DNA from: Atribacterota bacterium
GTDB lineage: Bacteria; Atribacterota; Phoenicimicrobiia; Phoenicimicrobiales; Stramentimicrobiaceae
NCBI GenBank assembly: GCA_040767965.1
Contig: JAXGNR010000006.1
Location: 155,178-219,177 of the forward strand
Length of the DNA: 64,000 bases
Reading direction: 5' to 3'
Below the pieces are notes generated by a model that was given only the letters and a program-made list of their open reading frames with translations, was not told where the DNA came from and made no database searches. Each line of letters starts with the position of its first letter. The stretch's first letter is position 1. A program made the translations under genes and the position numbers. Positions 28,172 through 47,844 of the stretch are shown piece after piece.

Positions 28172-28172
28172 T

Positions 28173-28862
28173 ATGAGTAAAATCTTAATAATTGAAGATC
28201 AGCAGAGTATTGCTGAACTGGAAAAAGATTATTTAGAAATAAATAACTTTCAAGTCGATATAATAACTAATGGTCAAGAAGGCTTAAAAAAAGCATTAGA
28301 ACTGGATTATGACCTGATTTTACTGGACTTAATGCTCCCGGACATAAATGGTTTTGAAGTATGTAAAAAAATACGTGAAGAAAAAAATATTCCCATTTTG
28401 ATTATCTCTGCAAGAGGACAGGATATAGACAAAATAAGAGGCCTGGGATTAGGAGCAGATGATTATATAAGTAAACCTTTTAGCCCCAATGAGCTTGTAG
28501 CCAGAGTAAAAGCCCACTTGAATCGTTTCAACAGACTTACCGGTAAAACTGAAAACACAAAACATGAAATACACATCAAAAATCTCACTATAAACCAAAT
28601 TTCTCATCGGGTATTTCTCGATAATAAAGAAATCTATCTAACAACTAAGGAATTTGAAATATTAAATTTTTTAGCTTCTCACCCAAATATTGTTTTCAGC
28701 AAAAAACAGCTATACGAACAGATCTGGGGAGATAATTCTTATGGAGATATTGCCACTATCGCTGTTCATATTAAAAAAATCAGAGATAAAATAGAAAATG
28801 ACCCCCAAAATCCACTTTTTATTGATACTTTATGGGGTTCTGGGTATCGGTTTAACAAATGA
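28173..28862 (+). CDS. OmpR/PhoB family response regulator
   Basis: IIEDQ, LLDLMLP, GADDYISKPF, winged-helix LTTKEFEIL...TLWGSGYRF. Confidence 0.95.
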   Translation: MSKILIIEDQQSIAELEKDYLEINNFQVDIITNGQEGLKKALELDYDLILLDLMLPDINGFEVCKKIREEKNIPILIISARGQDIDKIRGLGLGADDYISKPFSPNELVARVKAHLNRFNRLTGKTENTKHEIHIKNLTINQISHRVFLDNKEIYLTTKEFEILNFLASHPNIVFSKKQLYEQIWGDNSYGDIATIAVHIKKIRDKIENDPQNPLFIDTLWGSGYRFNK

Positions 28863-32182: not shown

Positions 32183-32647
32183 TTATTCAAGATTATTCCT
32201 TATTAGATTAATATTTCGTTTAATATCAATTAAATCTTGTCTGAATTTTTTTCCTTTATCCGGCAATTTAGACAAAAGAAGAGAATAATTTTCTGTAGAC
32301 TTCTGCTGATGGTAAGAGTAAAATATTTTACCCTTTTCTGATAGGGTTACCAGGACTTTTCTTCTATCTTGCTGGGCACGACGTCTATCTAAAAATCCTT
32401 TTTTTATCAGACGGTCTACGATACTGGTCATAGTTGTAGGTGCAACATGAAAGAAATTAGAAAGTTTGCTCATAGAAGCAAAAGACTCTTTTCCTAAAAA
32501 TTCAATTAATAAATGTTCTATAAAACTAAAAGATGTTTTTTTTTCATAAAAAAGATCACTTTCAGCAATATGTTCCCACAACATTTCAGATAATTGGAAA
32601 AATAAATCATTAATTTCTGATGCAAATCTTTTTTCTTCCTTTGTCAT
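32183..32647 (-). CDS. MarR family transcriptional regulator
   Basis: TTMTSIVDRLIKKGFLDR...DRRKVLVTLSEKG winged helix. Confidence 0.9.
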   Translation of the reverse strand: MTKEEKRFASEINDLFFQLSEMLWEHIAESDLFYEKKTSFSFIEHLLIEFLGKESFASMSKLSNFFHVAPTTMTSIVDRLIKKGFLDRRRAQQDRRKVLVTLSEKGKIFYSYHQQKSTENYSLLLSKLPDKGKKFRQDLIDIKRNINLIRNNLE

Positions 32648-32745: not shown

Positions 32746-33174
32746 TTAAAGAAAAAGATATAGTAACATTCTTACCATAAAAGCTACTATCAACATAGCT
32801 AAAAGAGTTGGTAAAATTCCTTGTTTTTTCATTTCATTAGCTAATAATCCAGGAATAATATAACCGATACTCTGCATTTCAATGTTTATTATCGGTAACT
32901 GAAATACAAAAGTTTCTATCAGCCACTTGATTAGAAAACTAATTAAAATCACACTTAAAAAACGCCTCTTACCGTAAAGAATAAAATAATTTGATAACAA
33001 CAAGATAAGGTAATAGGTAATTATGGCAATTCCAATGGTTAAAATAATACGCAATGGCTGATCAAAAAATAAAGCAATGTATCCGGGTACTACAATTCCT
33101 CCTGGAGATAAACCCACAAATTCATAAAATAAAAATCCTATAATTATTCCAATTCCGATTGCCTGATACAGCAT
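32746..33174 (-). CDS. pgsC: poly-gamma-glutamate biosynthesis protein PgsC/CapC
   Basis: GLSPGGIVVPGYIAL, ILYGKRRF, IGYIIPGLLANEMKKQG. Confidence 0.93.
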   Translation of the reverse strand: MLYQAIGIGIIIGFLFYEFVGLSPGGIVVPGYIALFFDQPLRIILTIGIAIITYYLILLLSNYFILYGKRRFLSVILISFLIKWLIETFVFQLPIINIEMQSIGYIIPGLLANEMKKQGILPTLLAMLIVAFMVRMLLYLFL

Positions 33175-34355
33175 ATTTCTTCCCCATTTTCTTGAAAATA
33201 TTCAATTATCTGCATCCCAGCTCCTTTGGTATTGCACAACCCATAAACTATACCGTAGTCTTCAATAAACTGAAAAACTGTCTCTATGATCTGATCAGGA
33301 TTTTTTCTCTTTTTTATCCGATAAATATTTTCAGAAGGATACCCAAAATCAGTTAATTTTTTCTGGCTTAGTGAACTAGTTGGACCAATAAGAATAATTT
33401 TTGAAAAGAAAAGATTATTGGCCAAAATTTGGTCAAACTGAATAGTTCGAGTAATACGGTCTTCCCGATGATTAACAATTGCTATTTTTTTCGCATGGAT
33501 CGTTTTTTTGCCAGAAAATAATTTATTAACTTTTTCCCACACAAGCAAAAGAGATTCTTTGTCATTAACGGCAAAAGAATTAATAAACCAGAGTATCTTT
33601 TTATTTTTAACTAATTTATAAATACTCAAAGCTCCTGGATCAGGAGTAGCCTTGAGTATACCTTGAAGAGCTGTGTCAGTATCAATTTTTAATAATCTGC
33701 TTACCTCTAAAGCGATAGCGATATTATCTTTAAAATATAAATGAGGTGTTTCTTCATAAGAAATTCCAGATAGCTTATCATAATCGGCTAAAATGGATTT
33801 GGTGTTTAATAAACTTGCGTATCCCTCGAAATAAGAAAAATATTTTTTTTCAGCTGTTACCGGCAAGCCATTCTCAGGAATTGTTGACTTTAAAGCATCA
33901 GCTATGTCTTGTAATTTAAAACCATAAATATCCTGATGATCAGCTCGAACATTTGTGATTATCCCAATTGTTGATTTAATAAGTTGGTGTTCACTTACCC
34001 ATTGAGTTTCAGGATTAACAGCCATACACTCTACTACAATAGCATCAACTCCTTTTTTAGCTGCCCTTCTTACAAAATATTTTTGTTCAATGATATTTGC
34101 ACCAAACTTTCTCCTAATTTCTTTTTCTGTACCATTTTCCAAAATAATTCTGGGGGCTGTCCCCGTTGTTTTAGCTAGTACAGAATAGCCAGCTTCTCTT
34201 AGGCAGGCTGCAATCAATCTTACAGTAGTTGATTTCCCTCTGATACCATTAACATGAATACGAATGGGTATTTTTTTTATTATTATTTTATGTAAGAAAT
34301 ATTCCAGGAATCCAAAAATAGTTATTAAAACTATAAGAAAAATTAGTATATACAA
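33144..34355 (-). CDS. pgsB: poly-gamma-glutamate synthase PgsB/CapB
   Basis: IPIRIHVNGIRGKSTTVRLI, KTTGT, ANIIEQ, VECMAVNP, ITNVRADH, FAVND; N-terminal TM; TTG start; overlaps pgsC. Confidence 0.95.
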   Translation of the reverse strand: MYILIFLIVLITIFGFLEYFLHKIIIKKIPIRIHVNGIRGKSTTVRLIAACLREAGYSVLAKTTGTAPRIILENGTEKEIRRKFGANIIEQKYFVRRAAKKGVDAIVVECMAVNPETQWVSEHQLIKSTIGIITNVRADHQDIYGFKLQDIADALKSTIPENGLPVTAEKKYFSYFEGYASLLNTKSILADYDKLSGISYEETPHLYFKDNIAIALEVSRLLKIDTDTALQGILKATPDPGALSIYKLVKNKKILWFINSFAVNDKESLLLVWEKVNKLFSGKKTIHAKKIAIVNHREDRITRTIQFDQILANNLFFSKIILIGPTSSLSQKKLTDFGYPSENIYRIKKRKNPDQIIETVFQFIEDYGIVYGLCNTKGAGMQIIEYFQENGEEICCIRQSELE

Positions 34356-34736
34356 GATAAGTTACCTTTTTTTTATTTTTAATGCTTATTTAATGTTTAA
34401 TGGTTTTCTTTAATTTAATTTTTACTATTAACTATTTTCTTGTATCTTTATCTCTTATTTTCCGATAAGTATAACAATAGCATGTAAATTTCTCTAAAAT
34501 ATTTTGGTAAACAAATCATGGTTAGCCTTTTTATTATTTAAAATAAAACTCCTTCCATTGTTTTCAATAAAATGATATATTAAATTGAAATAACCTACTT
34601 AAAAAACTGCTTAGCATAATAAATTGTTCTTTTATTTTATCATATTTCCAAAGGATAGAGCCTAATTTCTTTTGTTGATTTTTTCATTTTGTTACTTTAT
34701 TATTTAAATTCAATTACATAAATTTTGGTTTACAAT

Positions 34737-35846
34737 ATGAAAAACTGGATAAAACCTTTCATTCCAATGAAATATATCATAATTGCTTTTTTGATAATCA
34801 TTGTTGGCATGTTTTTCGTTGAAACTACAAAAAAAACTGTTAATAGACCCTATTATCAGATCCAGGCAGAAGCAGCCCGAATAATGCTTCAATCTGCAAA
34901 TTCTCTTCAGAAGGAAAAAACATTAAAAAATATCCCGACTTCCAATGAATTAGATCCAAATCAGACTGGTCTGATAGGTATGGAATTTACTCCTCTTACA
35001 ACTACTCTGGGTAATCTGACTGCAAAACGTACTTCTACTAATCCTGATTTTGCAGCATTAATGGTAAAATTTATGAAAGAGGCAAGATTAACATCCGGTG
35101 ATTATATCGCAATAGGTGCCAGTGGCTCTTTTCCTGCCTTAGTAGTAGCAATTTTGTCTGCCTGTAAAGCCATGGAAATTAACCCTCTCATTATATATTC
35201 TATTGGATCTTCAGAATACGGCGCAAACATCCCTGGTTTTACATTTATAGAAATGTTGAATATTTTAAATAAAGAAAACATTTTACCTTATAAATTGTTA
35301 GCAGTGTCTCTAGGTGGAGAAAATGATCAGGCAGAATCAATGCTTTACCCTGAATCAAAAGAATTAATTAACAGCATAGCCAGAGAATCAGGAATTTTTT
35401 TTATTAATACAAGTAATCTGGAAGAAAATATCCAGAAGAGAATTGATTTATATCAGGAAAGTACTGGTAAACAACCAATCAAATTGTTTGTAAATATTGG
35501 AGGAAATGTAGCTAATTATGGCACTACATCTTCTTCCATCACCTTTCCAAATGGTCTTATATTACAACATTCAGAAATTCCCAATCATCCCACAAGAGGT
35601 TTAATCTTTGAATTTCAATCAAAAGATATTCCTGTTATAAATTTGTTAAATATAGTAGATTTAGCAATAAAAAACCAGCTAGCCATTGACCCTATTCCAT
35701 TACCATCTGTTGGAAAGAGTAATTTATATAAAGAAGTTCAATATTCAAAATGGTTGATTATTTTAATAATAATTATAGAAATTTTTTATCTCTGCTGGAT
35801 ATCCTCTTATAGAAAGATTTTAGCTCGTGATAGTGCTGAAATATAA
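34737..35846 (+). CDS. pgsW: poly-gamma-glutamate system protein PgsW
   Basis: DPNQTGLIG.EFTPLTTTLG.L.AKRTSTNPDFAA, ASGSFPAL, GSSEYGAN, FVNIGG; N- and C-terminal TM helices; divergent from pgsB. Start uncertain (34725/34737/34767). Confidence 0.88.
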   Translation: MKNWIKPFIPMKYIIIAFLIIIVGMFFVETTKKTVNRPYYQIQAEAARIMLQSANSLQKEKTLKNIPTSNELDPNQTGLIGMEFTPLTTTLGNLTAKRTSTNPDFAALMVKFMKEARLTSGDYIAIGASGSFPALVVAILSACKAMEINPLIIYSIGSSEYGANIPGFTFIEMLNILNKENILPYKLLAVSLGGENDQAESMLYPESKELINSIARESGIFFINTSNLEENIQKRIDLYQESTGKQPIKLFVNIGGNVANYGTTSSSITFPNGLILQHSEIPNHPTRGLIFEFQSKDIPVINLLNIVDLAIKNQLAIDPIPLPSVGKSNLYKEVQYSKWLIILIIIIEIFYLCWISSYRKILARDSAEI

Positions 35847-35905
35847 AACCCTGATGTTAATACTACTTAAAAGCTTTTCTATTCAAGAATTTTTATTATT
35901 TAACT

Positions 35906-37282
35906 TTACATGTATTTATTCAGCAATATAGAAAAGAGAACCATTCCGAAAAGTGCAAATGGATATACTGCTCCATACCCTGCTGCAGGGTCATCACTGC
36001 CGACAGAATCAATTGCAGCACCTAATCCGGGGGTAGAAGTCATTCCTCCACAAATCGCTCCGGATAGCATCACCCAATTTATTTTAAATAAATATCTCCC
36101 TACAAAAAATCCAGCCAATAAAGGAATGGAACCAATGAAAATACCGGCAATTGCCAGAGAAAGCCCGGGTCCAGTCAAAGAATCGATAACCTGGTAGCCA
36201 TATCTTATTCCAATAACTGCAAAGAAATAAGCAAGGGTTATTGACCTTAAGACTCCTAGAACCTTATTATCCATTCGAAAGCAAAAAGGACCAATATTAC
36301 CAATATGACCTAGAAACAAGGCTGCAATAAGCACTCCACCTGTTGATCCCAGGCTTAATTCACCAAGGAATCCTAAAGGTATTTTGATAATCCCAATAAA
36401 ATATCCAACCATACACACAAGAGCATATGCGCTTAAATCAAAGAAAACTTCTCTGACACTCTTATCTTCACTATTTTCCTGTATATCTTTTTTTGAACCA
36501 ATACCTAATTCTTCTGCTAATAATAATTTTTCTTTACTGGTATCTATTTTAAAAAGGACCGGAAAAAAATTCATAGCAAAAATAACAATAATAACACCGA
36601 ATGGATAACTGACTGCATATCCGGTACCCACTGCGGCTTCTACATTTCTTACAAAATTACTCTTCTGTTCTTCTGTTAGCTCTTCTAAAATATTACTATT
36701 ACTAGCCTCTGCATTTTTTTTATTGTTTATTATATTAACTATTCTTTGTTTTTCAGATAAGCTTAAATGGGAATAATTCTCTAATAATTCACTGGAATGA
36801 GATCTTGCCGTCTCAATTGAAGCAGCTAATCCGGGTGAGCTGGTCAATGCACCAGTATAAGCTCCAGTATATAAATAAGGATTATCAGTTGAACTTAATA
36901 CACCTACCCCATAAGTTGCCATTGCTCCAACAGAGGTAATTAAAAATCCAAGTATAATAAATTTGGCACCATATTTTTTTACTACTTTTCCTACCTCTTT
37001 TGCAGCCAATAATCCAACTGAAGCAATGAATAAAATTAAAAATAAATCAAAAAATCCTTTATCAACAATTCCTTTGGCCAGGATATTCTGTCCGGTTTTA
37101 TAAAATTCACTGGCTGTTTCAATTTCATTAATAAATTTTGTTATCAGCCATCCTACAGCTATTCCCACAAACATGGATCCAGAGGTTCCAAAACTAAATT
37201 TTCCAAATTTAATATTACCAAAAAACATTCCTAAAAAAACACAAAAACTCATTAATAAAAAAGGATTTGTCCAGATTGACAT
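35906..37282 (-). CDS. AspT/YidE/YbjL (aspartate:alanine exchanger family) transporter without TrkA-C domains
   Basis: Duplicated domain motifs GAYTGALTSSPGL...GYAVSYPFG and GAICGGMTSTPGLG...GYGAVYPFA. Confidence 0.85.
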   Translation of the reverse strand: MSIWTNPFLLMSFCVFLGMFFGNIKFGKFSFGTSGSMFVGIAVGWLITKFINEIETASEFYKTGQNILAKGIVDKGFFDLFLILFIASVGLLAAKEVGKVVKKYGAKFIILGFLITSVGAMATYGVGVLSSTDNPYLYTGAYTGALTSSPGLAASIETARSHSSELLENYSHLSLSEKQRIVNIINNKKNAEASNSNILEELTEEQKSNFVRNVEAAVGTGYAVSYPFGVIIVIFAMNFFPVLFKIDTSKEKLLLAEELGIGSKKDIQENSEDKSVREVFFDLSAYALVCMVGYFIGIIKIPLGFLGELSLGSTGGVLIAALFLGHIGNIGPFCFRMDNKVLGVLRSITLAYFFAVIGIRYGYQVIDSLTGPGLSLAIAGIFIGSIPLLAGFFVGRYLFKINWVMLSGAICGGMTSTPGLGAAIDSVGSDDPAAGYGAVYPFALFGMVLFSILLNKYM

Positions 37283-37510
37283 ATTTTTTATTTACACCTG
37301 CTTCTAATTTTTACATTAATCAATTGTATTTTTTAATATTTATTTGAAATGCAATATCTTATTTCAAATTTGTATATTTATCCTGTTGATAAACACTAGA
37401 TAAAACATTATTTTTAATATTTATAGTAGTATAACACACAAAACATTATTCATACTTTAAAATATAAACAATAACTAACGCCTTTTAATAATATTGATTA
37501 GTTGTATCGC

Positions 37511-37559
37511 AATAATTTCTTCCCATATTTTTTAATAAAACATATGGGAAGAAATTATT
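37511..37559. terminator. 18-bp perfect inverted repeat, probable terminator downstream of the deacylase gene
   Basis: AATAATTTCTTCCCATAT (37511-37528) and ATATGGGAAGAAATTATT (37542-37559). Confidence 0.65.
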
Positions 37560-37650
37560 TATAAATAGAATTTACAAAAAACAATCCAATTTAATTTGCT
37601 ACTTTAAGTTAAACATAATATTTATATTATTCTTATTTGGTAATTTTGTT

Positions 37651-38841
37651 CTACGGTTTTAACAGATAATATCCAAGACCATTTTCAATAATATCAGCTT
37701 TTTTTGGTAAATTTCTTATCTCAATCAAGTTTTCAGGGTATAGCTCTGAATAAGCTGCTATTAAATGACTTATACCAGAAGCATGACGACCTACTCTCCT
37801 ATCCAGTGGCATACCTATTCCTTCAGGATAGGGAACATAAATAAGTCCTCCGTGTTTTGCGGCTCTTTCATAAAAAACATCTTTCCCTTCAACCAGCAGC
37901 TTTTCATTGGTTGGCCCTCTTAAGTTATCCATTGCTGGATTAGGTGTCTCCATAATTAAAGCAATTGCGTCAGTATGATCAGAAAATTCTCGATGAGTGA
38001 GACCTCGCAAATTCTCTGGAGAAGGTTCTATGCGCATTGCAATTCCTTCATCTAACCCTAGTGTCATAGAAGCAGTAGCAGCTATATACATTGCCTTTTC
38101 AGGAGCAATAATACAATTAACAATAGGATTCATGGGACGAGCTTCATGACAATCAATTACCAGATCAATTCCTTCTTGCTTGACAAGAGTTGTAATGCCA
38201 TAAGCAATCTTTTCTGTAAGCATTCCATCTGGTCTGCCCGGGAAAACTCTGTTCAGATTTCTAACTTCGGAACCAGAAACAAATTGCCCAGAAGGATAAT
38301 GAGCATAAGCATCAGGATCTGGGTATTGATGGATGGGATTAGTCACACGACTTCCATAACGAAAAGTCCTTTTACCCCATTCTGTTTGAATATTAAAATA
38401 ATTAGGAGCCCCCTGCCCTGGATCCTGATGAGTAAAACCACTTGCATTTGAATGAGGAATGACAATCGCTTTACCTTTTTCAATTGATACATTTTCAATA
38501 AAAAGTACAGCAGCTAGTAATCCTGATGATTCATTGGGGTGAATGCCTCCCAGCAGCAACATAGTTCCCCCAGGTTCTTTTCCTTCCATATAATAAATAG
38601 CAGTATCTCCTGGGGTGTCTTTCAGTTCAGAAAAATAGTCAGACAGCCGTCCCACACTTGTTATACCTGGACCTTTAATAATTTCTTCTACCTTATGTTT
38701 AGCAGCAAAAATGACAGAACTGTAGACAATTAAAGCTATCATTATTGCGACTACTATCAGAGATTGGGTCAGGTTTGATTTATTGTTTTCCTTTTTAATT
38801 TCTGATTTGGTTGTTTTTTTTGCTTTATTATTTTTGACCAT
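37651..38841 (-). CDS. succinylglutamate desuccinylase/aspartoacylase family (M14-like Zn hydrolase), membrane-anchored
   Basis: GGIHPNE (HxxE), RNLNRVFPG, IDCHE, late catalytic METP; basic N-terminus followed by one TM helix. Confidence 0.85.
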   Translation of the reverse strand: MVKNNKAKKTTKSEIKKENNKSNLTQSLIVVAIMIALIVYSSVIFAAKHKVEEIIKGPGITSVGRLSDYFSELKDTPGDTAIYYMEGKEPGGTMLLLGGIHPNESSGLLAAVLFIENVSIEKGKAIVIPHSNASGFTHQDPGQGAPNYFNIQTEWGKRTFRYGSRVTNPIHQYPDPDAYAHYPSGQFVSGSEVRNLNRVFPGRPDGMLTEKIAYGITTLVKQEGIDLVIDCHEARPMNPIVNCIIAPEKAMYIAATASMTLGLDEGIAMRIEPSPENLRGLTHREFSDHTDAIALIMETPNPAMDNLRGPTNEKLLVEGKDVFYERAAKHGGLIYVPYPEGIGMPLDRRVGRHASGISHLIAAYSELYPENLIEIRNLPKKADIIENGLGYYLLKP

Positions 38842-38868
38842 TTTAACACTTCTTCCTTTCCCATTATA

Positions 38869-39015
38869 TTATTTAAGAAGTAGCGCTCTCATAATGAAAG
38901 GTATAGCTACTACAGCATAAGCCATTTTCTGGTAAATACTTTTACTATCAAATAAAGTAATCACAAGCATAATAGCTATATATAAATAAACAATTCGAAT
39001 TATTGTAAATATCAT
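38869..39015 (-). CDS. small two-TM membrane protein (48 aa), not in the ORF track
   Basis: Hand translation MIFTIIRIVYLYIAIMLVITLFDSKSIYQKMAYAVVAIPFIMRALLLK*; AAGGAGA RBS at 39024-39030; fills the gap between permease and deacylase. Confidence 0.8.
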   Translation of the reverse strand: MIFTIIRIVYLYIAIMLVITLFDSKSIYQKMAYAVVAIPFIMRALLLK

Positions 39016-39050
39016 TGCTTATATCTCCTTTATTATCTTTTAAAACAAAT

Positions 39051-40352
39051 TTAAGATGCTAGCCATTTAAGCTGGCTGGAATATAAAATTATCAATACAC
39101 CGATTATAGAAATTGTAATTGCAGGAACAATTAACATTTTGTAAAATCTTATCAATGGCTCGTCGTATTTAGTTACAATTATTGCAGCATTACCAACAAT
39201 AGCTGATGGCGGACACAAGGTAGCCAAAGAACAGATAAAAGCAATTCCTGCTGTTTCCACAATCGGATTAGTACCTAACAATGCCAGCATCAACGGAACT
39301 CCAAAAGCAGCTGCAGAACCATAAGTTCCTAAAACGCTTCCAGATAATGGAAGACCAATCATTAAAGCAATATAAACCAGAACCCTTGGTGCAGTTAGCG
39401 CTGAGATAACAAAAAGACCCCTTACTCCAGTTAAAGTCATAATTTGAACCAATGCTCCAACAGAAATTAAAATAGCACAAACAGGCAAAACTTCCTTTAA
39501 GGATAATTTTGTATTTCCGATAATGTCTATTTTTTTGGAAACAATCAAGGCAGGTATAGATCCTATTACAAAGATAAGGGGATTACCAAGAATGGGCAGT
39601 ATTCCAGGGAAAGTACTCTGAAAGATAAATATTGTCATAACTAAAATAATAGGGAAATACGCACCGAACCTACCTAGCCTTATTGATCCTTCTGGTATTT
39701 TATCAAGAATAGGTTGAGGATCAATACTTCTTTCCACATACTTTGCTCCGTAAAATAATGCAAATATTATCCCTAAAGGAATAGTTAGTATGATTAGAGG
39801 TAGAAAAAATCCCATATATGGCATATTAATACCATTAGAAATTATCATTGCTGGTATATTGATAGGAGGAGCACTGAGGCCAAGAATCCCGCCTATGGAT
39901 ATAAATGCCGTCACATTACGTTTAGGAAGACCAAGATGAGTAAGTATGGTCCCAATGGTTCCACCTACTGCCATAACAGCAGCAGTTCCTGAGCCGGTAA
40001 ATGCGCCTGGCAGCATGACAAAAAACATTAAAATAATAAGCATTAAAGGGGTAGAACGGGAAAAACCACTGATTATATCTCTTACAATAATGTTCATTGC
40101 CCCAGATTCTCTTTGAATAACAATAAAGATGGAGGCAGTGATTATAATAGCTACAATATCTAAAAAGGTGAACAACCCTTCAACTAGATGGGTAATCGGA
40201 ACACCTTCTCCCGCAACCAAGGCTCCTACAAGAGCAGCAAAGATAATATATAAACCAATGGGGATTTTCCTCTTATTACCCCACCAGTATGTCACAAAAA
40301 AACTCGCAATCATGACTATAAATATCAAAAAAGTATAAGCTGTTTGAGACAT
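39051..40352 (-). CDS. DctM-like (TRAP large subunit / ion transporter superfamily) permease
   Basis: About 12 TM segments; MLPGAFTGSGTAAV, GLSAPPINIPAMII, ATLCPPSAIVG hairpin motifs; GGAGG RBS. Confidence 0.8.
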   Translation of the reverse strand: MSQTAYTFLIFIVMIASFFVTYWWGNKRKIPIGLYIIFAALVGALVAGEGVPITHLVEGLFTFLDIVAIIITASIFIVIQRESGAMNIIVRDIISGFSRSTPLMLIILMFFVMLPGAFTGSGTAAVMAVGGTIGTILTHLGLPKRNVTAFISIGGILGLSAPPINIPAMIISNGINMPYMGFFLPLIILTIPLGIIFALFYGAKYVERSIDPQPILDKIPEGSIRLGRFGAYFPIILVMTIFIFQSTFPGILPILGNPLIFVIGSIPALIVSKKIDIIGNTKLSLKEVLPVCAILISVGALVQIMTLTGVRGLFVISALTAPRVLVYIALMIGLPLSGSVLGTYGSAAAFGVPLMLALLGTNPIVETAGIAFICSLATLCPPSAIVGNAAIIVTKYDEPLIRFYKMLIVPAITISIIGVLIILYSSQLKWLAS

Positions 40353-40562
40353 ATGAAACCTCCGTAAAACTAGGCATTTTAAAAAATAACAATTTCTTTC
40401 TTTTTTTGGTATTAAAATAAAGTTTCCAGGTAGAATATTTCAAAATAATCAGAGAATAAATTTCAGGAAAAACAGGTTAATATCTTTTTTACCTAATAAA
40501 TAGTTAATTTTTCAAAAAATTTAAATTTAATTAAGTTGATTATATTTAAAATTATCTCCAAC

Positions 40563-41144
40563 TTATTCTACATCTGCCTGGAATACCTTTTGCAATACTC
40601 CACCTACTTCAGGAGTAGTAGTTACCACTACCAAAGGAATATTCTTATCCTTTGAAAGATTACTGAAATAACCATCCTTGTTTCCTTCTTCAGTGACTAT
40701 AAGTCCCTTTGTTCTGGGAGCTACCAGATCAATAAACTGCTGGGAAAGAGGTCCTCTTCTGCCTTCTCCTCCAATATGGATCCCCAAAACTAATATACCC
40801 TGCTTTATTGCTTCATCTATTATTTTTGTTGATCTTTCCAGTTCAAATTTTTCATCAATTCCTGCTGCTCCTAATCCTTTAGTACTTCCACCCATAACTA
40901 TGATTAGGGTCTTAATATCTTTAATCTCATCAACATTAACAAGTCCATTATAGGAAGATTCTATTTTTGCCCTATCCAGTAAAACCTTAACAACAAAGGC
41001 ATCAGGGCTTTGTCCGCTGGAAGTTAATAAAATTGGCAATTCACCTTTCGGAAGCTCCTGGGCACAAGAAAAGCTAGTTATAATGCCAAAAAAAAGTAAA
41101 GTAAAAACAATAACTTTAAAATATTTATTGATAAATTTTCTCAT
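40563..41144 (-). CDS. DUF6305-like exported protein
   Basis: Signal peptide, then ILLTSSGQSPD, VMGGSTKGLGAAGID...E..R, HIGGEGRRG.LS, GNKDGYF. Confidence 0.8.
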   Translation of the reverse strand: MRKFINKYFKVIVFTLLFFGIITSFSCAQELPKGELPILLTSSGQSPDAFVVKVLLDRAKIESSYNGLVNVDEIKDIKTLIIVMGGSTKGLGAAGIDEKFELERSTKIIDEAIKQGILVLGIHIGGEGRRGPLSQQFIDLVAPRTKGLIVTEEGNKDGYFSNLSKDKNIPLVVVTTTPEVGGVLQKVFQADVE

Positions 41145-41170
41145 AATTTCTTTCTCCTTCTTTAGAATAT

Positions 41171-41205
41171 CTGCTGGAGATCAAAATGATTTTGGTCTCC
41201 AGCAG
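41171..41205. other. GC-rich stem-loop between ggt and the DUF6305-like gene (second copy at 43982-44016)
   Basis: CTGCTGGAGATCAAAAT-g-ATTTTGGTCTCCAGCAG; no U-tract in the minus-strand transcription direction. Confidence 0.7.
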
Positions 41206-41241
41206 CAAAATATGTTTAACAGTATCAGTATAGTTGAATAT

Positions 41242-43113
41242 CTACCAGCCTATGGCATAGCCTCCCCCTCTAGGATCAGAACCGGCTTCCCAGGTTTTAT
41301 GTTCTGGATGTATTAAAATACCATGCGCCATATTTCCTCCACCAAATTCAGGAAGTATTGAAACTTTATGTCCTTTTTCCTCTAATTCTTTAGCTATTTC
41401 TTCAGGTATTCTAGATTCCAATCTAAGAGTAGTATCAGCCCCAGGCAGGTAAAAATTCGGTTGAGCAGTAACTTCACAACGAGCAGCATCAATAGCTTCC
41501 TGGATTCCCATACCAAAATCAATTACATTAAGCAGAATCTGGAAAGTCACCTGGCCAATTGTTTCTCCTCCTGCAACACCATAGAGCATAAATAATTCTC
41601 CATCTTTCATAATCATGGTTGGGGCATTGCCTAAAAGAGATATTTTTCCACCTTTAATAACATTAACATTATCTTCATATGGTGCAACAGAACCTACTCT
41701 TGTTCCATTATTAAATAACAAACCTGTATTACCTACGATCACTTTTGTACCATGAAGATCTCCATGTGTAGGAGTAGATGAAACTGCATTTCCAAACCTG
41801 TCCACAACATTGAAATTAGTTGTAAAGCAGACTTCCTCAACATCTTCTTCTGTAAAATCATTATTATAAGCCGTTGTAAAGCTTTGTATAGAAGTTTTCA
41901 TCTGGGCAACTGCCTTTAGCTCTTCCGGAATCCCGGGACCAGGATAAGTCATTGCTTTTTCCATGTCAATCAATTCTCTTCTTACATCTGCATATTCCTT
42001 GGAAAGCATGGCTTCAGTTGGTATGTCAACAAAAGCTTCATCGGCAACATATTGATAGATATCAGCTTTAGCTAATTTAATACACTCTGCTACCAGGTGC
42101 CAATAATCAGAGGTATTATATCCAATTTCCTGTAAATCAAATCCTTCAATCAGGTTAGCCTGCATCGTAAGCTCATAGCCAGATCGTGAAGTTGATGGTG
42201 TAGTATAAATATCATACCCACGGTAATTAATATGCAATGGCTCTTTCCAGATAGGCTCATAATCTGCAAAATCCTTTAGAGTAAAAAGGCCATCATTTTC
42301 CTGATAGAACTGTACAACATCCTGTGCAATATCCCCTTTATAGAAACGGTCATAGGCTGCCTGCAAAGCCTCATTTCTGGATTTGCCCTGGGCTAAAGCC
42401 ATTTGTTCGGCAGCTACCAGTTTTTTAAAGGTGTTAGCCAAATCTTTCATGTAAATCATTTCACCTATTTCCGGCAATCTTCCATTAGGCATAAAAACTC
42501 GGGCTGAAGTAGGAAAAATAGCGATAATGCTTTCACTATTTTTAAACCAGGCATACATAACCTCACTAACCGGCTGACCATTTTCGGCATAGTCTATAGC
42601 TCTTTCTAAAACTTCAGCTAAACTCATGGTACCAAATTTCTGCATGGCCTGGATCCATCCACCAAAAACTCCCGGTACACAGCCTGCCTTATAGCCCATA
42701 GCTAAATCTTCAGGAGTGTGTATTTTTGGATCAACAGCATAGGGAACAGCACCAGTCATATTAATATTATAAACTTTATTTTCAGGCGCCCAATATATTG
42801 TAGCAAATCCATTCCCATCTAAACCAGTCATAGCCGGATCTACTACCTGTAAAACAGCATTTACGGCTACAGCTGCATCAATAGCATTGCCTCCTTTCAT
42901 GAGTATCTGAACACCTGCTTGAGAGGAAAAAGCATTGACCGAGCTGACCAACCCATATTTTCCTATAACACCAGGCCTGGTATTCAACTCTCCTAGATAC
43001 GATGTTTTAATTGCTCTAGCACTTACAGTTAAAACAGGGAGAGCAGCCACAAGTACAAAAATAGTAGATAAGATAAAAATATATACTATTTTATTTAATT
43101 TTCTTTCATTCAT
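41242..43113 (-). CDS. ggt: gamma-glutamyltransferase family protein (Ntn hydrolase), paralog 1, exported
   Basis: GGNAIDAAVA, CVPG, autoprocessing site FTTNFNVVDRFGNAVS, oxyanion GVAGG, C-terminal GSDPRGGGYAIGW; signal peptide. Confidence 0.92.
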   Translation of the reverse strand: MNERKLNKIVYIFILSTIFVLVAALPVLTVSARAIKTSYLGELNTRPGVIGKYGLVSSVNAFSSQAGVQILMKGGNAIDAAVAVNAVLQVVDPAMTGLDGNGFATIYWAPENKVYNINMTGAVPYAVDPKIHTPEDLAMGYKAGCVPGVFGGWIQAMQKFGTMSLAEVLERAIDYAENGQPVSEVMYAWFKNSESIIAIFPTSARVFMPNGRLPEIGEMIYMKDLANTFKKLVAAEQMALAQGKSRNEALQAAYDRFYKGDIAQDVVQFYQENDGLFTLKDFADYEPIWKEPLHINYRGYDIYTTPSTSRSGYELTMQANLIEGFDLQEIGYNTSDYWHLVAECIKLAKADIYQYVADEAFVDIPTEAMLSKEYADVRRELIDMEKAMTYPGPGIPEELKAVAQMKTSIQSFTTAYNNDFTEEDVEEVCFTTNFNVVDRFGNAVSSTPTHGDLHGTKVIVGNTGLLFNNGTRVGSVAPYEDNVNVIKGGKISLLGNAPTMIMKDGELFMLYGVAGGETIGQVTFQILLNVIDFGMGIQEAIDAARCEVTAQPNFYLPGADTTLRLESRIPEEIAKELEEKGHKVSILPEFGGGNMAHGILIHPEHKTWEAGSDPRGGGYAIGW

Positions 43114-43357
43114 TTTTATTATCCCCCTTTATTATTAAATTAACTTTCACAAATCAGATGTCTTAACTTATGATTTGTACTTAAGTGCTATTAATTTTTA
43201 TTAAAACTCCTAAATCACTCCTTCTGTGTTTTATATTTATCAAAATAAATATTTTTTATAAATAGTTTATTTTAATACAACATTTTATAATTATTAATAT
43301 TTATAAAAACAAAATAAAAATAAAGATTGAGTTATGAAAAAGTTTCTTCTTAAAAAG

Positions 43358-44069
43358 AAATTATCTCCAACTTATTCTACATCTTGCCTGGAATACCTTT
43401 TGCAATACTCCACCTACTTCAGGAGTAGTAGTTACCACTACCAAAGGAATATTCTTATCCTTTGAAAGATTACTGAAATAACCATCCTTGTTTCCTTCTT
43501 CAGTGACTATAAGTCCCTTTGTTCTGGGAGCTACCAGATCAATAAATGCTGGGAAAAGAGGTCCTCTTCTGCCTTCTCCTCCAATATGGATCCCCAAAAC
43601 TAATATACCCTGCTTTATTGCTTCATCTATTATTTTTGTTGATCTTTCCAGTTCAAATTTTTCATCAATTCCTGCTGCTCCTAATCCTTTAGTACTTCCA
43701 CCCATAACTATGATTAGGGTCTTAATATCTTTAATCTCATCAACATTAACAAGTCCATTATAGGAAGATTCTATTTTTGCCTATCCAGTAAAACCTTAAC
43801 AACAAAGGCATCAGGGCTTTGTCCGCTGGAAGTTAATAAAATTGGCAATTCACCTTTCGGAAGCTCCTAAGGCACAAGAAAAGCTAGTTATAATGCCAAA
43901 AAAAAGTAAAAGTAAAAACAATAACTTTAAAATATTTATTGATAAATTTTCTCATAATTTCTTTCTCCTTCTTTAGAATATCTGCTGGAGATCAAAATGA
44001 TTTTGGTCTCCAGCAGCAAAATATGTTTAACAGTATCAGTATAGTTGAATATCTACCAGCTATGGCATA
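43358..44069. repeat. ~712-bp direct repeat, copy 2
   Basis: Same as 40549-41259 except indels near 43385, 43546, 43556, 43781, 43869, 43910 and 44060. Confidence 0.95.
43372..43955 (-). pseudogene. second copy of the DUF6305-like gene, frameshifted as written (likely sequence errors)
   Basis: Nucleotide copy of 40563-41144 with six indel events; the track ORF 43361-43705 is a fragment of it. Confidence 0.85.
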
Positions 44070-45863
44070 ACCTTCTCTTCTAGGATCAGCACCGGCAGTC
44101 CATGTTCCGAACTCAGGATGAATTATAATCCCCTGCATACCGCCAACACTACTGGTAAATTCCGGGTATAGTCTGATTGTATGACCTTTGGCTTCAAATT
44201 CTTTAATCACTTCTTCAGGTATTCTGGACTCTAATCCTACAGTAATTGCTGCTCCAGGAGTATAAAAATCAGGATTTGCACTGAGAGTTCCTCTTGGAGC
44301 TTCTATAGCATCCTGGATTCCCATACCAAAATCAACAACATTGAGTAATACCTGGAAGGTAGTTTGGCCAATTCCTTCTCCGCCCGGAGTTCCGTAAATC
44401 ATAAAAGGCTTTCCATCTTTCATGACAACAGCAGGGCCATTACCCAGTAAGGATATTTTTCCTCCCTCAAGATAATTGACATTGTCTTCATACGGGGCAA
44501 TAGAACCATATCTAGTGCCATTATTGAATAATAATCCTGTATTTCCAACTACTACCCTGGTACCAAAGAAACTACCATGAGTAGGAGTAACTCCAACTGC
44601 ATTGCCAAAACTGTCAATAACTTCGAAGTTGGTTGTTTCTCCATCATCAATTATTTGTTCCCGGTAGGCAATAGCATTAGATAGTTGAGCTACTGCTTTT
44701 AATTCTTCTGGAACACCTGCTTCAGGAAATTCCATTGCTTTATCCATGTCAATCAATTCTCTTCTTACGTCTGCATATTCCTTTGAAAGCATGGCTTCAG
44801 TGGGTATGTCAACAAAAGCTTCATCGGCAACATATTGATAGATATCAGATTTAGCCAATTTAATTGACTCAAAAACAAGATGTAGATAGTCAGCACTGTT
44901 GTGACCAAGAGCCTGTAGATCAAAACCTTCTATCAGATTTAGCTGCATACAAACCTCGTAGCCTGTTCTGGAAGTGGAAGGACTGATAAAGACATCATAT
45001 CCTCTATAATTGGTGTGTAATGGTTCTTTCCAGACTGGCTTGTAATCAGCAAGGTCTTCAGCTGTGAAAAACCCACCATTTTCTTGGTAAAATCTTACAA
45101 TCTCCTGGGCAATATCACCAGTGTAGAAACGGTCATAGGCTGCCTGTAAAGCCTCATTTCTGGATTTTCCCTGTGCTAAAGCCATTTGTTCGGCAGCTAC
45201 CAGTTTTCTATAAGTATTAGCCAGGTCTTTCATGTAAAACATTTCTCCCACTGCAGGTACTTTGCCTCCCGGCAGGAAAACTCTAGCACTAGTTGGATAT
45301 AATTCAAAATTAATTTTATTTGATTCTATGTTGCTTTGAAAAACCGGTGTTACCGGGAACCCGTTTTCTGCATAGTTAATGGCACTTTCCATAACTTCTG
45401 CCAGGCTCATGGTGCCAAACTTCTGCATAGTTTCAATCCATCCACCAAAAACTCCTGGTACACAGCCTGCTTTATAGCCTATATCCACTTCCTCTTTGGT
45501 AAGATTTTTCAAATCAGCAGCATAAGGAACTGCTCCAGTCATTCCCACTGAATAAACTTTATTTTCAGGAGCCCAGTAAATTGTGGCAAATCCATTTCCA
45601 TCTAAGCCTGATGCATGAAACTCTACCACATGTAAAGTTGCTGCTACTGCTACTGCTGCGTCAATGGCATTACCTCCTTTTTTAAGGATATCTAATCCAG
45701 CCTGAGAAGCTAGTGAATTGGCTGAAGTAACTAACCCTTCCACGCCCACAACGGCTGGTCTATAAGCAGCAATTGAAGTAGCTGCAAATAAAGAAAAACA
45801 AACTACTATTATCAGTAAGCAAAAAATATTTAGGTTTTTTTTAGAGAACTTACTTTTATACAT
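44053..45863 (-). CDS. ggt: gamma-glutamyltransferase family protein, paralog 2, exported
   Basis: GGNAIDAAVA, DGETTNFEVIDSFGNAVG, GTPGG, GADPRREGYAI. One missing base near 44060 turns the shared ...YAIGW* end (stop at 44053) into a read-through to 43992. Confidence 0.9.
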
Positions 45864-46018
45864 AACCTGTTACTCCTTAAATCTTTTAATTAATTAATTT
45901 TTTTATAATCTCTAAATTTATACTTTTTTATTTGTTAATAATCACCTCCAATTTTACCGGCTAAAATTTATTATTTGTTTCAAAAATGCAAATTCCAAGA
46001 ATTTTCTTTATCTATGAG

Positions 46019-47844
46019 CTACCAGCCAATAGCGTATGCTTCACCTCTTGGATCTGCACCAGCTGTCCAGGTACCATGTTCTTGATCTATTAAAATTGCT
46101 TGAACCATATTTCCGCCTCCTAATTCACCAACAACTGATACTGAGTGACCTTTAGAGGCAAGTTCTTTTATTACCTCTTCTGGCACTCTTGACTCGACAG
46201 CTATGGTAACTTCTGACCCGTGGGTATAAAAATCTACTTTAGACAATACTCTTGTTCTGGGGTCTTCAATTGCTTCCTGAATACTCATACCAAAATCAAT
46301 AACATTGAGTAATGTTTTAAACATTGCCATACTAATGGATTCTCCTCCCGGACTACCAAAAGCCATAAACAGTTTTCCATCTTTTATGACAATAGCAGGA
46401 GCATTTCCCAACAGAGAAATCTTTCCTCCTTCCAGATAATTAACATTATCCGGATAAGGGGCGATAGAACCATACCTGGTGCCGTTATTGAATATTAACC
46501 CGGTTTTACCAATCACGACTCCAGTTCCATAAATATTTCCATGGGTAACTGTAGCAGATAATGCATTCCCAAATCTATCGATAATATCAAAATTGGTAGT
46601 ACATTCACTCTCATAAACTTCACTGTTACTTTTGTCACTTACTTGACCAGCAATACTATATTCCGGGGTAAAACCATAAGCAACTGCCTTTAGCTCTTCC
46701 GGAATCCCGGGACCAGGATAAATCATTGCTTTTTCCATGTCAATCAATTCTCTTCTTATGTCTGCATATTCCTTGGAAAGCATGGCTTCAGTGGGTATAT
46801 CAACAAAAGCTTCATCAGCAACATATTGATAAACATCAGCCTTCGCTAGCTTGATACACTCAGCAAATACATGTAGATAATCAGCACTATTATTACCAAG
46901 AGCCTGCAGGTCAAATCCTTCTATTAAATTCAAGTACATAATTACTTCATAACCACTTCGTGAAGTGGAGGGGCTTATGAAAAGATCGTAACCGCGATAG
47001 TTAGTATGTAACGGCTCTTTCCAGATCGGTTTGTAATCTGCTAAATCTTCTTTTGTAAACAGACCGTCATTTTCCTGGTAAAATCTTACAATCTCCTGTG
47101 CAATGTCCCCGGTATAAAAACGGTCATAGGCTGCCTGTAAAGCTTCATTTCTGGATTTTCCCTGGTCTAAAGCCATTTGTTCAGCAGATCCATTTTCTTG
47201 AAGGTGTTAGCCAGGTCTTTCATGTAAAACATTTCTCCAACTGCAGGTACTTTGCCTTTAGGCAGAAAAACTCGGGAAGTTGTTGGAAATAGTTCTAGAG
47301 TAGTTTTAAATCTTTCTGTCCAGTCATACCAAGCAGAGGTAATCGGGAAGCCTTTTTCCGCATAATTGATGGCACTTTCCATAACATCTGCCAAACTCAT
47401 AGTACCAAATTTTTGCATAGCTTGAATCCATGCCCCAAAAAGTCCCGGGACACATCCTGACTTATAGCCTCTGTCAAGCTCTTCTTTTGATAGTTTACTA
47501 AAGTCTACAGCATAAGGAACTGCTCCAGTACCAGCTATGGAATATACTTTATTTTCAGGAGCCCAGTAAAGAGAAATAAAACCATTCCCATCTAAACCGG
47601 ACATATAATATTCAACAACATTTAATGTAGCAGCTGTAGCTACCGCAGCATCAACAGCATTGCCACCTTTCTGTAAAATATCTAATCCAGCTTGACTGGC
47701 AAGGGAATGAGCAGAAGTAGTTAAGCCATAAACACCAACTATATTAGGTCTATATTGAGCATTAACTGTCAAAGTAAGAATAGATAAAAGTAAGATGAAT
47801 AAAATGAGATTAAACATTTTAGTGCTTAACTTGTTTTTAAACAT
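46019..47844 (-). CDS. ggt: gamma-glutamyltransferase family protein, paralog 3, interrupted by a 1-bp frameshift near 47189
   Basis: Track ORFs 47167-47844 and 46019-47176 are the two parts. Paralogs read KKLVAAEQMALAQG here, and adding one base gives KKMVSAEQMALDQG. ECTTNFDIIDRFGNALS, GSPGG, GADPRGEAYAIGW. Confidence 0.88.

Follow-up and report, generated by a model that had tools for sequence, protein, structure and literature searches.

A polyglutamate synthase locus without PgsA in an Atribacterota bacterium and a candidate cassette for trimming and uptake of the polymer

Introduction

The closest described counterparts of the gene cluster examined here are the poly-gamma-glutamate systems of Bacillus, encoded by pgsBCA(E) together with pgdS and ggt or, in B. 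anthracis, by capBCADE, and the capBCA type of Francisella and Fusobacterium nucleatum. Our subject is the segment from 32746 to 47844 of a stretch of 64,000 nucleotides (hereafter the window; contig JAXGNR010000006.1, positions 155,178 to 219,177) of an Atribacterota bacterium (assembly GCA_040767965.1), whose genome, binned at 2.33 Mb in 30 contigs, is 98% complete. An earlier note on this DNA had proposed that pgsB, pgsC and a gene named there pgsW, together with three gamma-glutamyltransferases (GGTs), DUF6305, a DctM-like permease, a microprotein, a deacylase and an AAE-family exchanger, make and recycle a gamma-glutamyl polymer. Genes were called from a list of open reading frames (ORFs) and by Pfam and NCBIfam profile scans, and all of those named were recovered (Table 1). 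The reading that we favour, and hold to be reasonably probable, is that polyglutamate synthesis without PgsA is coupled here to periplasmic trimming by the GGTs and a zinc hydrolase and to uptake via the permease, with DUF6305 as its binding partner.

With the Bacillus systems the window shares PgsB and PgsC equivalogs and the presence, beside the synthase, of a GGT-family enzyme together with another exported hydrolase, an arrangement which passages of PMC4497714 describe for CapD, PgdS and Ggt. The short lid-loop region of the window GGTs is likewise a feature of the Bacillus enzyme. Unlike those systems, the window cluster lacks PgsA/CapA and has a protein of the family TIGR04332 in its place, its hydrolase is AstE/AspA-like whereas PgdS is an NlpC/P60 enzyme, and Bacillus has no counterpart of DUF6305, of the TRAP-like permease or of the microprotein.

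The triad of pgsB, pgsC and the TIGR04332 gene is that of the capBCA type. Table 3 of PMC5362203, the one paper found to use the phrase, gives FTT_0807/capA of Francisella as 'poly-gamma-glutamate system protein'; in that genus the three-gene arrangement of pgsBC with 'PgsW' and without PgsA thus already bears a name, capBCA. In F. nucleatum (L080) the triad lies in the same cluster as GGT, DUF6305, permease, microprotein and hydrolase, as it does in the window; in contrast to the F. nucleatum and Francisella type, the window shows pgsW inverted relative to pgsBC, an inserted AAE gene and a triplicated GGT. The name 'PgsW', which we keep only for the gene and the loci collected with it, does not occur among the papers listed by the search, and in the literature searched neither a mention of DUF6305 nor a description of the cluster was found. 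For the system of Fusobacterium, a search to which supplements did not belong returned only general polyglutamate reviews and work on Bacillus, while a paper on metagenome-assembled genomes (MAGs) speaks, in the passage concerned, of CapBC 'and other proteins' without detail (PMC9324843).

Results

Two sets of loci were compared with the window. Species genomes scanned with an alignment of DUF6305 yielded 576 relatives, the best 80 loci of which form the DUF6305-anchored set, and a metagenome scan with the TIGR04332 protein gave 467, the best 80 of which form the pgsW-anchored set; the alignment used in the latter scan was narrow, so that this sample is biased towards relatives of the TIGR04332 protein of the window. 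More than ten phyla are represented among the 80 DUF6305 loci, including Bacillota, Fusobacteriota, Spirochaetota, Synergistota, Thermotogota, Myxococcota and, besides the latter, 'Deltaproteobacteria', as well as Armatimonadota, KSB1, Zixibacteria, Aminicenantes and others. Of these loci 74 contain the permease, 65 a GGT and 64 the hydrolase; at least one pgs gene falls within the flank in 38 and all three in 33. Where the cluster is complete, as in F. nucleatum (L080) and C. tetanomorphum (L076), the usual order is GGT-DUF6305-permease-microprotein-hydrolase-pgsB-pgsC-TIGR04332, all in one direction. No pgs gene was seen in the other 42 loci, ten of which extend at least 5 kb on both sides, and in all ten of these genomes PgsB was found elsewhere with a score above its cut-off. 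By the same measure PgsB occurs in one of 14 control genomes, and DUF6305 was found in none of 14, B. subtilis included.

The association also holds genome by genome. Among 81 Fusobacteriota, DUF6305 and PgsB above cut-off occur in the same 15 genomes, on one contig and about 2.7-3.4 kb apart, and the other 66 have neither, save for one sub-threshold DUF6305 match. The Atribacterota were represented by 41 genomes (the window genome, 21 of the same family and 19 of a sister family), which as relatives are not independent samples, though unrelated phyla show the pattern again: 18 carry both genes, 18 neither, two PgsB only and three, all bins of 68-85% completeness, DUF6305 only. DUF6305 is thus present in 21 of them, namely the window's own genome, 17 of the 21 from its family and three of the 19 from the sister family, where it is found in three of four PgsB carriers and in none of the 15 non-carriers. 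Permease and hydrolase adjoin 15 of the 20 DUF6305 matches in these relatives, nine of them with a GGT in addition; the remaining five are either cut off by the edge of their contig or without a match in tblastn. When the loci were anchored on pgsW instead, the module was adjoining in 30 of 80, in 22 of the 44 that are at least 5 kb long and in five of the nine with 5 kb on both sides.

Profiling of gene neighbourhoods and genomes, which the earlier note had suggested as a check, therefore gives strong support across phyla to its central claim: adjacency, the PgsB of the unlinked genomes and joint presence in Fusobacteriota all indicate that the module of DUF6305, DctM-like permease, deacylase and GGT belongs with pgsB, pgsC and the TIGR04332 gene. 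By these comparisons its constant core is DUF6305-permease-microprotein-hydrolase, a frequent, not a universal, companion of the pgs genes.

As to the synthase genes, PgsC of the window is 70-79% identical to the proteins of family relatives and PgsB 53-60%, PgsB and the TIGR04332 protein together spanning 51-60%. The TIGR04332 gene lies 369 bp from the divergent pgsB, and its true start is probably 34737, since homologues begin at the Met that is residue 5 of the ORF. The protein has hydrophobic segments at its N- and C-terminus and, over 22 sequences, the invariant residues T92, T93, K101, S133, S135 and S163; a sequence search of solved structures found no relative of it, and an Atlas search retrieved its own family only.

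The absence of pgsA/capA from the locus, stated in the earlier note, was borne out by a Pfam scan, which detected no PGA_cap domain (the PgsA family, PF09587) there. The note had also held that a pgsA elsewhere in the genome would count against its proposal. Two PGA_cap paralogues do exist, one on contig C4 in a glycosyltransferase cluster and one on contig C17 beside a Memo-like ORF, so that in a formal sense such a gene is present, although neither stands in a polyglutamate context. The paralogue on C17 (C17:11128-12848) is preceded by, and overlaps partly in content with, a Memo/AmmeMemoRadiSam-like ORF and is followed by a gene for an 869-aa exported protein, in a region unrelated to the polyglutamate cluster. 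When both paralogues were used in tblastn, a weak test at such distances, a PGA_cap-like gene was seen nearby in one (L123) of 200 related loci. In the complete genome of F. nucleatum SB042 the only PgsB is that of the cluster, and PGA_cap gave no match. Since polyglutamate production has been reported for this species (Candela et al. 2009, as cited in PMC3815933), it is likely, by analogy, that the cluster type without PgsA makes polyglutamate.

The permease has no Pfam match at E<=0.01 and only a weak NCBIfam match to DcuC (26 bits, under the cut-off), and a sequence search of solved structures with it returned nothing. Its AlphaFold model (pLDDT 92.8) was matched by Foldseek most closely to IseQM (9pym, TMq 0.70), SiaQM (7qha, 0.69) and 8y4w (0.68), followed by DASS, ArsB and AbgT proteins, at 12-16% sequence identity to the TRAP-M matches listed. 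According to this model it would be an elevator-type permease of the ion-transporter superfamily and DctM-like at the level of the fold only, a sense in which the label given by the earlier note is supported (TMq 0.68-0.70 to TRAP M subunits). Its neighbour, the microprotein, adjoins the permease and not pgsBC. An ORF of 40-70 aa occupies 56 of 64 permease-hydrolase gaps, although in at least one of them (L068) the ORF looks spurious, and an alignment of 30 sequences shows a two-helix hairpin in which R43 never varies and Y6, P39 and L42 hardly do; judged by this conservation, the microprotein is a genuine gene, as had been supposed. A complex prediction for permease, microprotein and DUF6305 scored 0.00, which speaks neither for nor against binding.

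With TRAP (DctPQM) and TTT (TctABC) transporters the locus has in common a large membrane subunit modelled as elevator-type with a DctM-like fold (TMq ~0.7), an adjoining gene for a putative small membrane partner and an exported soluble protein in the operon. It differs from them in that the permease lacks a DctM match in Pfam, the small partner is a 48-aa hairpin and not the 4-helix DctQ/TctB, and the soluble protein is the ~160-aa single-domain DUF6305 and not the two-lobed DctP/TctC.

DUF6305 is modelled (pLDDT 91.4) as a small exported Rossmann-like alpha/beta domain with a conserved pocket, and its invariant residues (T41, G44, Q45, S87, K89, E101, R104, H123 and D157) lie mostly at or just past strand ends. 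Its best structural matches reached a TMq of 0.43 (0.37 among those with E<=0.001) and a Z of 10.4, the latter to halves of ribokinase and GT-B folds, and an Atlas search gave no usable match. More informative was its company. In 13 protein clusters, one of them from Halanaerobium praevalens, DUF6305 is fused N-terminally to an AstE_AspA_cat domain; one such fusion of 402 aa (L207:9181-10389) stands directly after a TIGR04332 gene and before a histidine kinase. A word-based search for longer fused relatives of the window DUF6305 found none, by a method which missed the ~400-aa fusions that exist. In L163 and L207 the genes for a histidine kinase and a response regulator come directly after a second DUF6305 copy or a fusion, and the same kind of pair flanks the cluster in F. 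nucleatum, in C. tetanomorphum and in a MAG of the Halanaerobiales. Because of the fusion to the hydrolase and the position before the histidine kinase, these observations fit DUF6305 being a ligand- or polymer-binding domain common to hydrolase, transporter and sensor; a catalytic role would also be possible.

The kinase-regulator pairs, which come from several phyla, lie at L076:16744-18736, L080:6033-8031, L061:16563-18560, L163:4151-6188 and L207:10380-12360. An output domain like HTH_24 or DpiA occurs in three of these five regulators, and in that of L163 only the receiver domain was seen. The kinase and regulator found in the window itself, at 26699-28862, are of OmpR type and look unrelated to the flanking pairs of the relatives.

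The hydrolase, called a deacylase in the earlier note, can be placed with AstE/AspA (M14 clan) by its PF24827 match and its metal-site pattern, and AstE/AspA-like proteins and DoeB are its best solved relatives. Residues H101-x-x-E104, H232-E233, E298, R165 and R198 are invariant in 30 sequences; taking the metal and catalytic roles of the H/E residues to be, by analogy, those of the AstE/AspA zinc site, the protein appears to keep an intact site of that type. The likeness consists in a profile match which is weak, though above its cut-off, and in the invariant H-x-x-E...H...E, and the difference in the ~390-aa length and in the N-terminus, basic and then a single hydrophobic helix, which predicts a membrane-anchored enzyme. 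Its match to the DoeB equivalog (32 bits, cut-off 403) is far from sufficient, that to M99 (16 bits) is also under the cut-off, and Pfam gave no match to the PghP family at E<=0.01. Exported hydrolases beside polyglutamate synthesis are known elsewhere, and passages of PMC4497714 name CapD, PgdS, GGT and the zinc enzyme PghP; like the last of these, the window hydrolase would belong to the zinc enzymes related to carboxypeptidase A and would act on a gamma-glutamyl amide.

Just before pgsB, two loci (L076:13379-14098 and L061:13141-13917) have an additional, smaller gene of AstE/AspA type (239-258 aa; M99 32-38 bits). Short 'deacylase' matches of low identity to such a paralogue were seen in 11 of 80 loci, two of which are hydrolase genes cut at a contig end. 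The place of the GGT is variable, and one or two Peptidase_C69 genes fill it in L027 and L049 (two each), L144, L148 and L207. C69 peptidases and GGT are both N-terminal-nucleophile hydrolases.

All three GGTs proposed in the earlier note were found, with the reservation that single-base indels split ggt3 into two ORFs and give ggt2 a false tail. The break in ggt3 is at Pfam position ~170, away from the autoprocessing site, and the C-terminal ~20 residues of ggt2 are a frameshift artefact, the true stop lying probably near 44052. The second DUF6305 copy (DUF6305') is of full length and differs from DUF6305 almost only by ~6-7 single-base indels over ~700 nt, one of which also creates the odd tail of ggt2; its hidden Markov model match is spread over two frames, each with a TAG. 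Contigs near-identical to the window were compared from public landfill and digester metagenomes (four runs). An extra C behind 44059 in those of run X1 results in a ggt2 product of 603 aa, one X3 contig has an additional A behind 47189 which turns ggt3 into a single ORF of 608 aa, and both restored proteins end in YAIGW, as ggt1 does. As these contigs carry intact ggt2 and ggt3, the breaks are probably assembly errors or strain variants and not decay, and the organism most likely carries three intact GGT paralogues. No contig of the four runs covers 43464-43710, a gap which is uninformative on the second DUF6305 copy because a 98% repeat would break such contigs.

Many DUF6305 genes of Atribacterota relatives lie close to the end of their contig, at most a few hundred bases away (G009:C179, G018:C135, G019:C135, G017:C18, G025:C2 and G012:C65), where short-read assemblies may be broken by repeated ggt-DUF6305 units like those of the window. 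Both copies (41150-41240 and 43960-44050, minus strand) have a 10+5-bp hairpin between the ggt stop and the ribosome-binding site of DUF6305; it lacks a U-tract, folding of the 111-nt stretch as a whole is only modestly better than that of shuffled sequences (z -1.8), and the hairpin may be an element of RNA processing or stability.

The three GGTs are 66-69% identical to each other and their best outside relative (L057) reaches 56%, which points to duplication within the lineage. All three have signal-peptide-like N-termini and a TTNF motif in their translations. The small subunit of ggt1 starts at T431, which aligns with residue 1 of solved small chains, and the window enzymes conform to MEROPS family T03 in having a PF01019 domain of full length (ggt1 and ggt2) and a small subunit that begins with the catalytic Thr. 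With the lid loop of E. coli GGT placed where we take it to lie, the region is eight residues shorter in the window than in that enzyme (2dbu_B) and two longer than in B. licheniformis GGT (4ott_B), which assigns the window enzymes to the lid-less type. GGTs of this type accept the polyglutamate polymer in Bacillus. Against membership of the CapD subgroup, ggt1 is nearer to canonical GGTs (190-215 bits) than to CapD (3g9k, 81 bits). Metatranscriptome contigs of run X7 are identical to parts of ggt1, ggt2 and ggt3, a weak hint that these genes are expressed.

In the window the nine genes from ggt3 to the AAE gene (ggt3, ggt2, the second DUF6305 copy, ggt1, DUF6305, permease, 48-aa ORF, hydrolase and AAE) form a row on the minus strand which converges on the TIGR04332 gene, itself divergent from pgsB-pgsC.

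Table 1. Features of the polyglutamate locus, in window coordinates
Feature	Position	Strand	Assignment and support
pgsC	32746-33174	-	CapC family membrane subunit of polyglutamate synthase; PF14102 130.7 bits; TIGR04011 131 bits (cut-off 96.45)
pgsB	33144-34355	-	ATP-dependent amide ligase of polyglutamate synthase; TIGR04012 386.9 bits (cut-off 222.7); Mur_ligase_M domain
TIGR04332 gene ('pgsW')	34725-35846	+	'Poly-gamma-glutamate system protein'; 350.8 bits (cut-off 100); no Pfam match
AAE	35906-37282	-	AAE-family (Asp-Al_Ex) permease; PF06826 207 bits
Zinc hydrolase ('deacylase')	37651-38841	-	AstE/AspA-like, M14 clan; PF24827 AstE_AspA_cat 30.2 bits (cut-off 25)
Microprotein	38869-39015	-	48 aa, two-helix; ORF and conservation in relatives
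Permease	39051-40352	-	Elevator-type; fold closest to TRAP DctM subunits; no Pfam match
DUF6305	40563-41144	-	PF19823 162 bits; exported, 193 aa (~160 aa without signal peptide)
ggt1	41242-43113	-	Exported gamma-glutamyltransferase; PF01019 387.7 bits
DUF6305'	43361 to ~44060	-	Second, broken copy with ggt-DUF6305 spacer; 98% DNA identity to 40575-41249
ggt2	43992-45863	-	PF01019 410 bits; TIGR00066 360 bits (cut-off 357.85)
ggt3	46019-47844, as two ORFs (47167-47844 and 46019-47176)	-	Pfam positions 2-169 and 175-511

Two neighbours on which the earlier note had drawn do not belong to the conserved set. The AAE gene, which it had counted as a member, was present in none of the 80 DUF6305 loci and in four of the 80 pgsW loci, with a PolyA_pol gene between AAE and pgsW in L139 and L149. 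The arginine operon, described there as directly adjoining, is not a meaningful neighbour either, an argD-like match having been found in a single locus of each set (L070 among the 80 DUF6305 loci, L149 among the 44 listed pgsW loci of at least 5 kb).

Downstream of pgsC, on the same (minus) strand and with short gaps, follow two genes, that of a MarR-family regulator at 32183-32647 and that of a P-type cation ATPase at 29341-32073. A P-type ATPase, ~27% identical, is convergent after the hydrolase in five of the 80 DUF6305-anchored loci (L096, L100, L118, L129 and L130), four of which bear spirochaete titles. In L051, genes like those for 2-hydroxyglutaryl-CoA dehydratase (HGD-D) precede pgsW. 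An Rfam scan of 28000-53000 gave no match, and promoter and terminator scans were no richer than shuffled sequence (75 promoter-like sites against 70, and six terminator-like sites against 9.5).

Discussion

From the gene content, co-occurrence, folds, catalytic residues and domain fusion described above we infer which polymer this locus makes, which substrates its proteins use, which way transport runs and what DUF6305 does, as follows. PgsBC and the TIGR04332 protein would polymerise glutamate and extrude gamma-polyglutamate to the periplasm or the cell surface. There the GGTs would take gamma-glutamyl units off its amino end and the zinc hydrolase would cleave N-(gamma-glutamyl)-glutamate bonds, which are chemically near N-succinylglutamate, the substrate of AstE. 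DUF6305 would bind the products or the polymer, and the permease with its microprotein would re-import glutamate or short gamma-glutamyl peptides.

Several observations weigh against this coupling of synthesis, trimming and uptake, or at least against its specificity. About half of the pgsW loci have no adjoining module, and a GGT stands beside pgsW in only three of the 80 metagenome loci, its slot being filled by C69 in L144, L148 and L207. Because the GGT is replaceable by C69 and rare beside pgsW, a gamma-glutamyl-specific reading of the core cassette, which usually comes with GGT and sometimes with C69, is not forced. The structure searches with DUF6305 (Foldseek, VIA) returned generic Rossmann-like matches only, with no functional clue, and the folds of the ion-transporter superfamily, to which the permease would belong, include exporters. 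Many cassette carriers are glutamate-fermenting species, and a link to glutamate fermentation is not supported for the window genome, which has no match to HGD-D. Furthermore, the adjacency seen in the window is a lineage-specific arrangement, as its comparison with relatives indicates. In most Atribacterota relatives pgsBC, the TIGR04332 gene and the module form three separate loci, with partial joins in G006, G010, G025, G037 and G039; pgsBC is then always preceded by a PspC-domain gene (L037, L044), and the TIGR04332 gene is followed by His_Phos_1 and SSF (sodium:solute symporter) genes (L049, L051, L053). The window permease groups with two Bacillota MAGs (SH-aLRT 100), outside the ten-member main Atribacterota clade, and hence the window module may be another paralogue, or a lateral and perhaps recent arrival, beside vertically inherited synthase genes.

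The main rival to recycling is assembly. A GGT could act as a CapD-like transpeptidase that attaches the polymer to the envelope or sets its size, the M14-like enzyme could prepare the acceptor, for instance by trimming stem peptides as the M99 enzymes of Csd4 type do, and the permease could supply glutamate or export a co-substrate. Such a role would agree with the joint presence and absence of DUF6305 and PgsB in Fusobacteriota (15 with both, 66 with neither), as expected of an integral part, with the extracytoplasmic location of all the enzymes indicated by their N-termini, with the weak M99 match, of 16 bits here and 32-38 bits in the small paralogues of L076 and L061, and with the precedent of CapD, a GGT-family enzyme in a cap operon according to PMC4497714. 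However, the window GGTs are far nearer to canonical GGTs than to CapD (215 against 81 bits), the nearest folds of the permease are binding-protein-dependent importers, and many clusters do without a GGT, which C69 can replace; we consider assembly a rather unlikely explanation.

That the module is essentially never found without PgsB is the reason why we disfavour a general scavenging of external gamma-glutamyl compounds or peptides (glutathione, foreign polyglutamate, cell-wall iso-glutamyl peptides) only loosely tied to the synthase. None of the 66 PgsB-negative Fusobacteriota has the module, all ten unlinked genomes carry PgsB, itself rare (one of 14 controls), and the sole three exceptions, in Atribacterota, are bins at most 85% complete. 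Scavenging thus seems improbable, in spite of three points in its favour: the module and the pgs genes lie apart in spirochaete loci and in most of the Atribacterota relatives, the hydrolase slot varies between GGT and C69, and several paralogous module copies exist in Atribacterota. Finally, the window neighbourhood could be a chance product of rearrangement and tandem duplication without shared function, as its arrangement is unlike that of family relatives, the module looks laterally acquired, and the AAE and arginine genes are incidental. The same gene set nevertheless adjoins across phyla, co-occurs genome by genome and shows a domain fusion, which makes mere chance very hard to believe.

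Going beyond the coupled synthesis, trimming and uptake favoured here, one could speculate that DUF6305, the DctM-like permease and the 48-aa hairpin constitute a secondary transporter of a new class, one that depends on a binding protein and handles gamma-glutamyl products, with DUF6305 serving also as ligand sensor of an adjoining two-component system and, fused to zinc hydrolases, as a domain that targets them to their substrate. This is a tentative proposal, to which we attach a low probability; if it were true, gamma-polyglutamate would be an actively managed external reserve of glutamate in anaerobes of more than ten phyla, F. nucleatum included.

Knowledge of polyglutamate biology rests almost wholly on Bacillus, and the cluster type without PgsA adds to it four conserved components of unassigned function: the TIGR04332 protein, DUF6305, the TRAP-like permease with its microprotein and the AstE-like ecto-hydrolase. 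This type appears to be standard in many anaerobic or uncultured phyla and in the oral, tumour-associated F. nucleatum. Its genes are candidates for the means by which diderm bacteria produce the polymer, set its size and recover it, for the role of DUF6305 and for a new kind of tripartite transporter, and they may be a source of new polyglutamate hydrolases for biotechnology.

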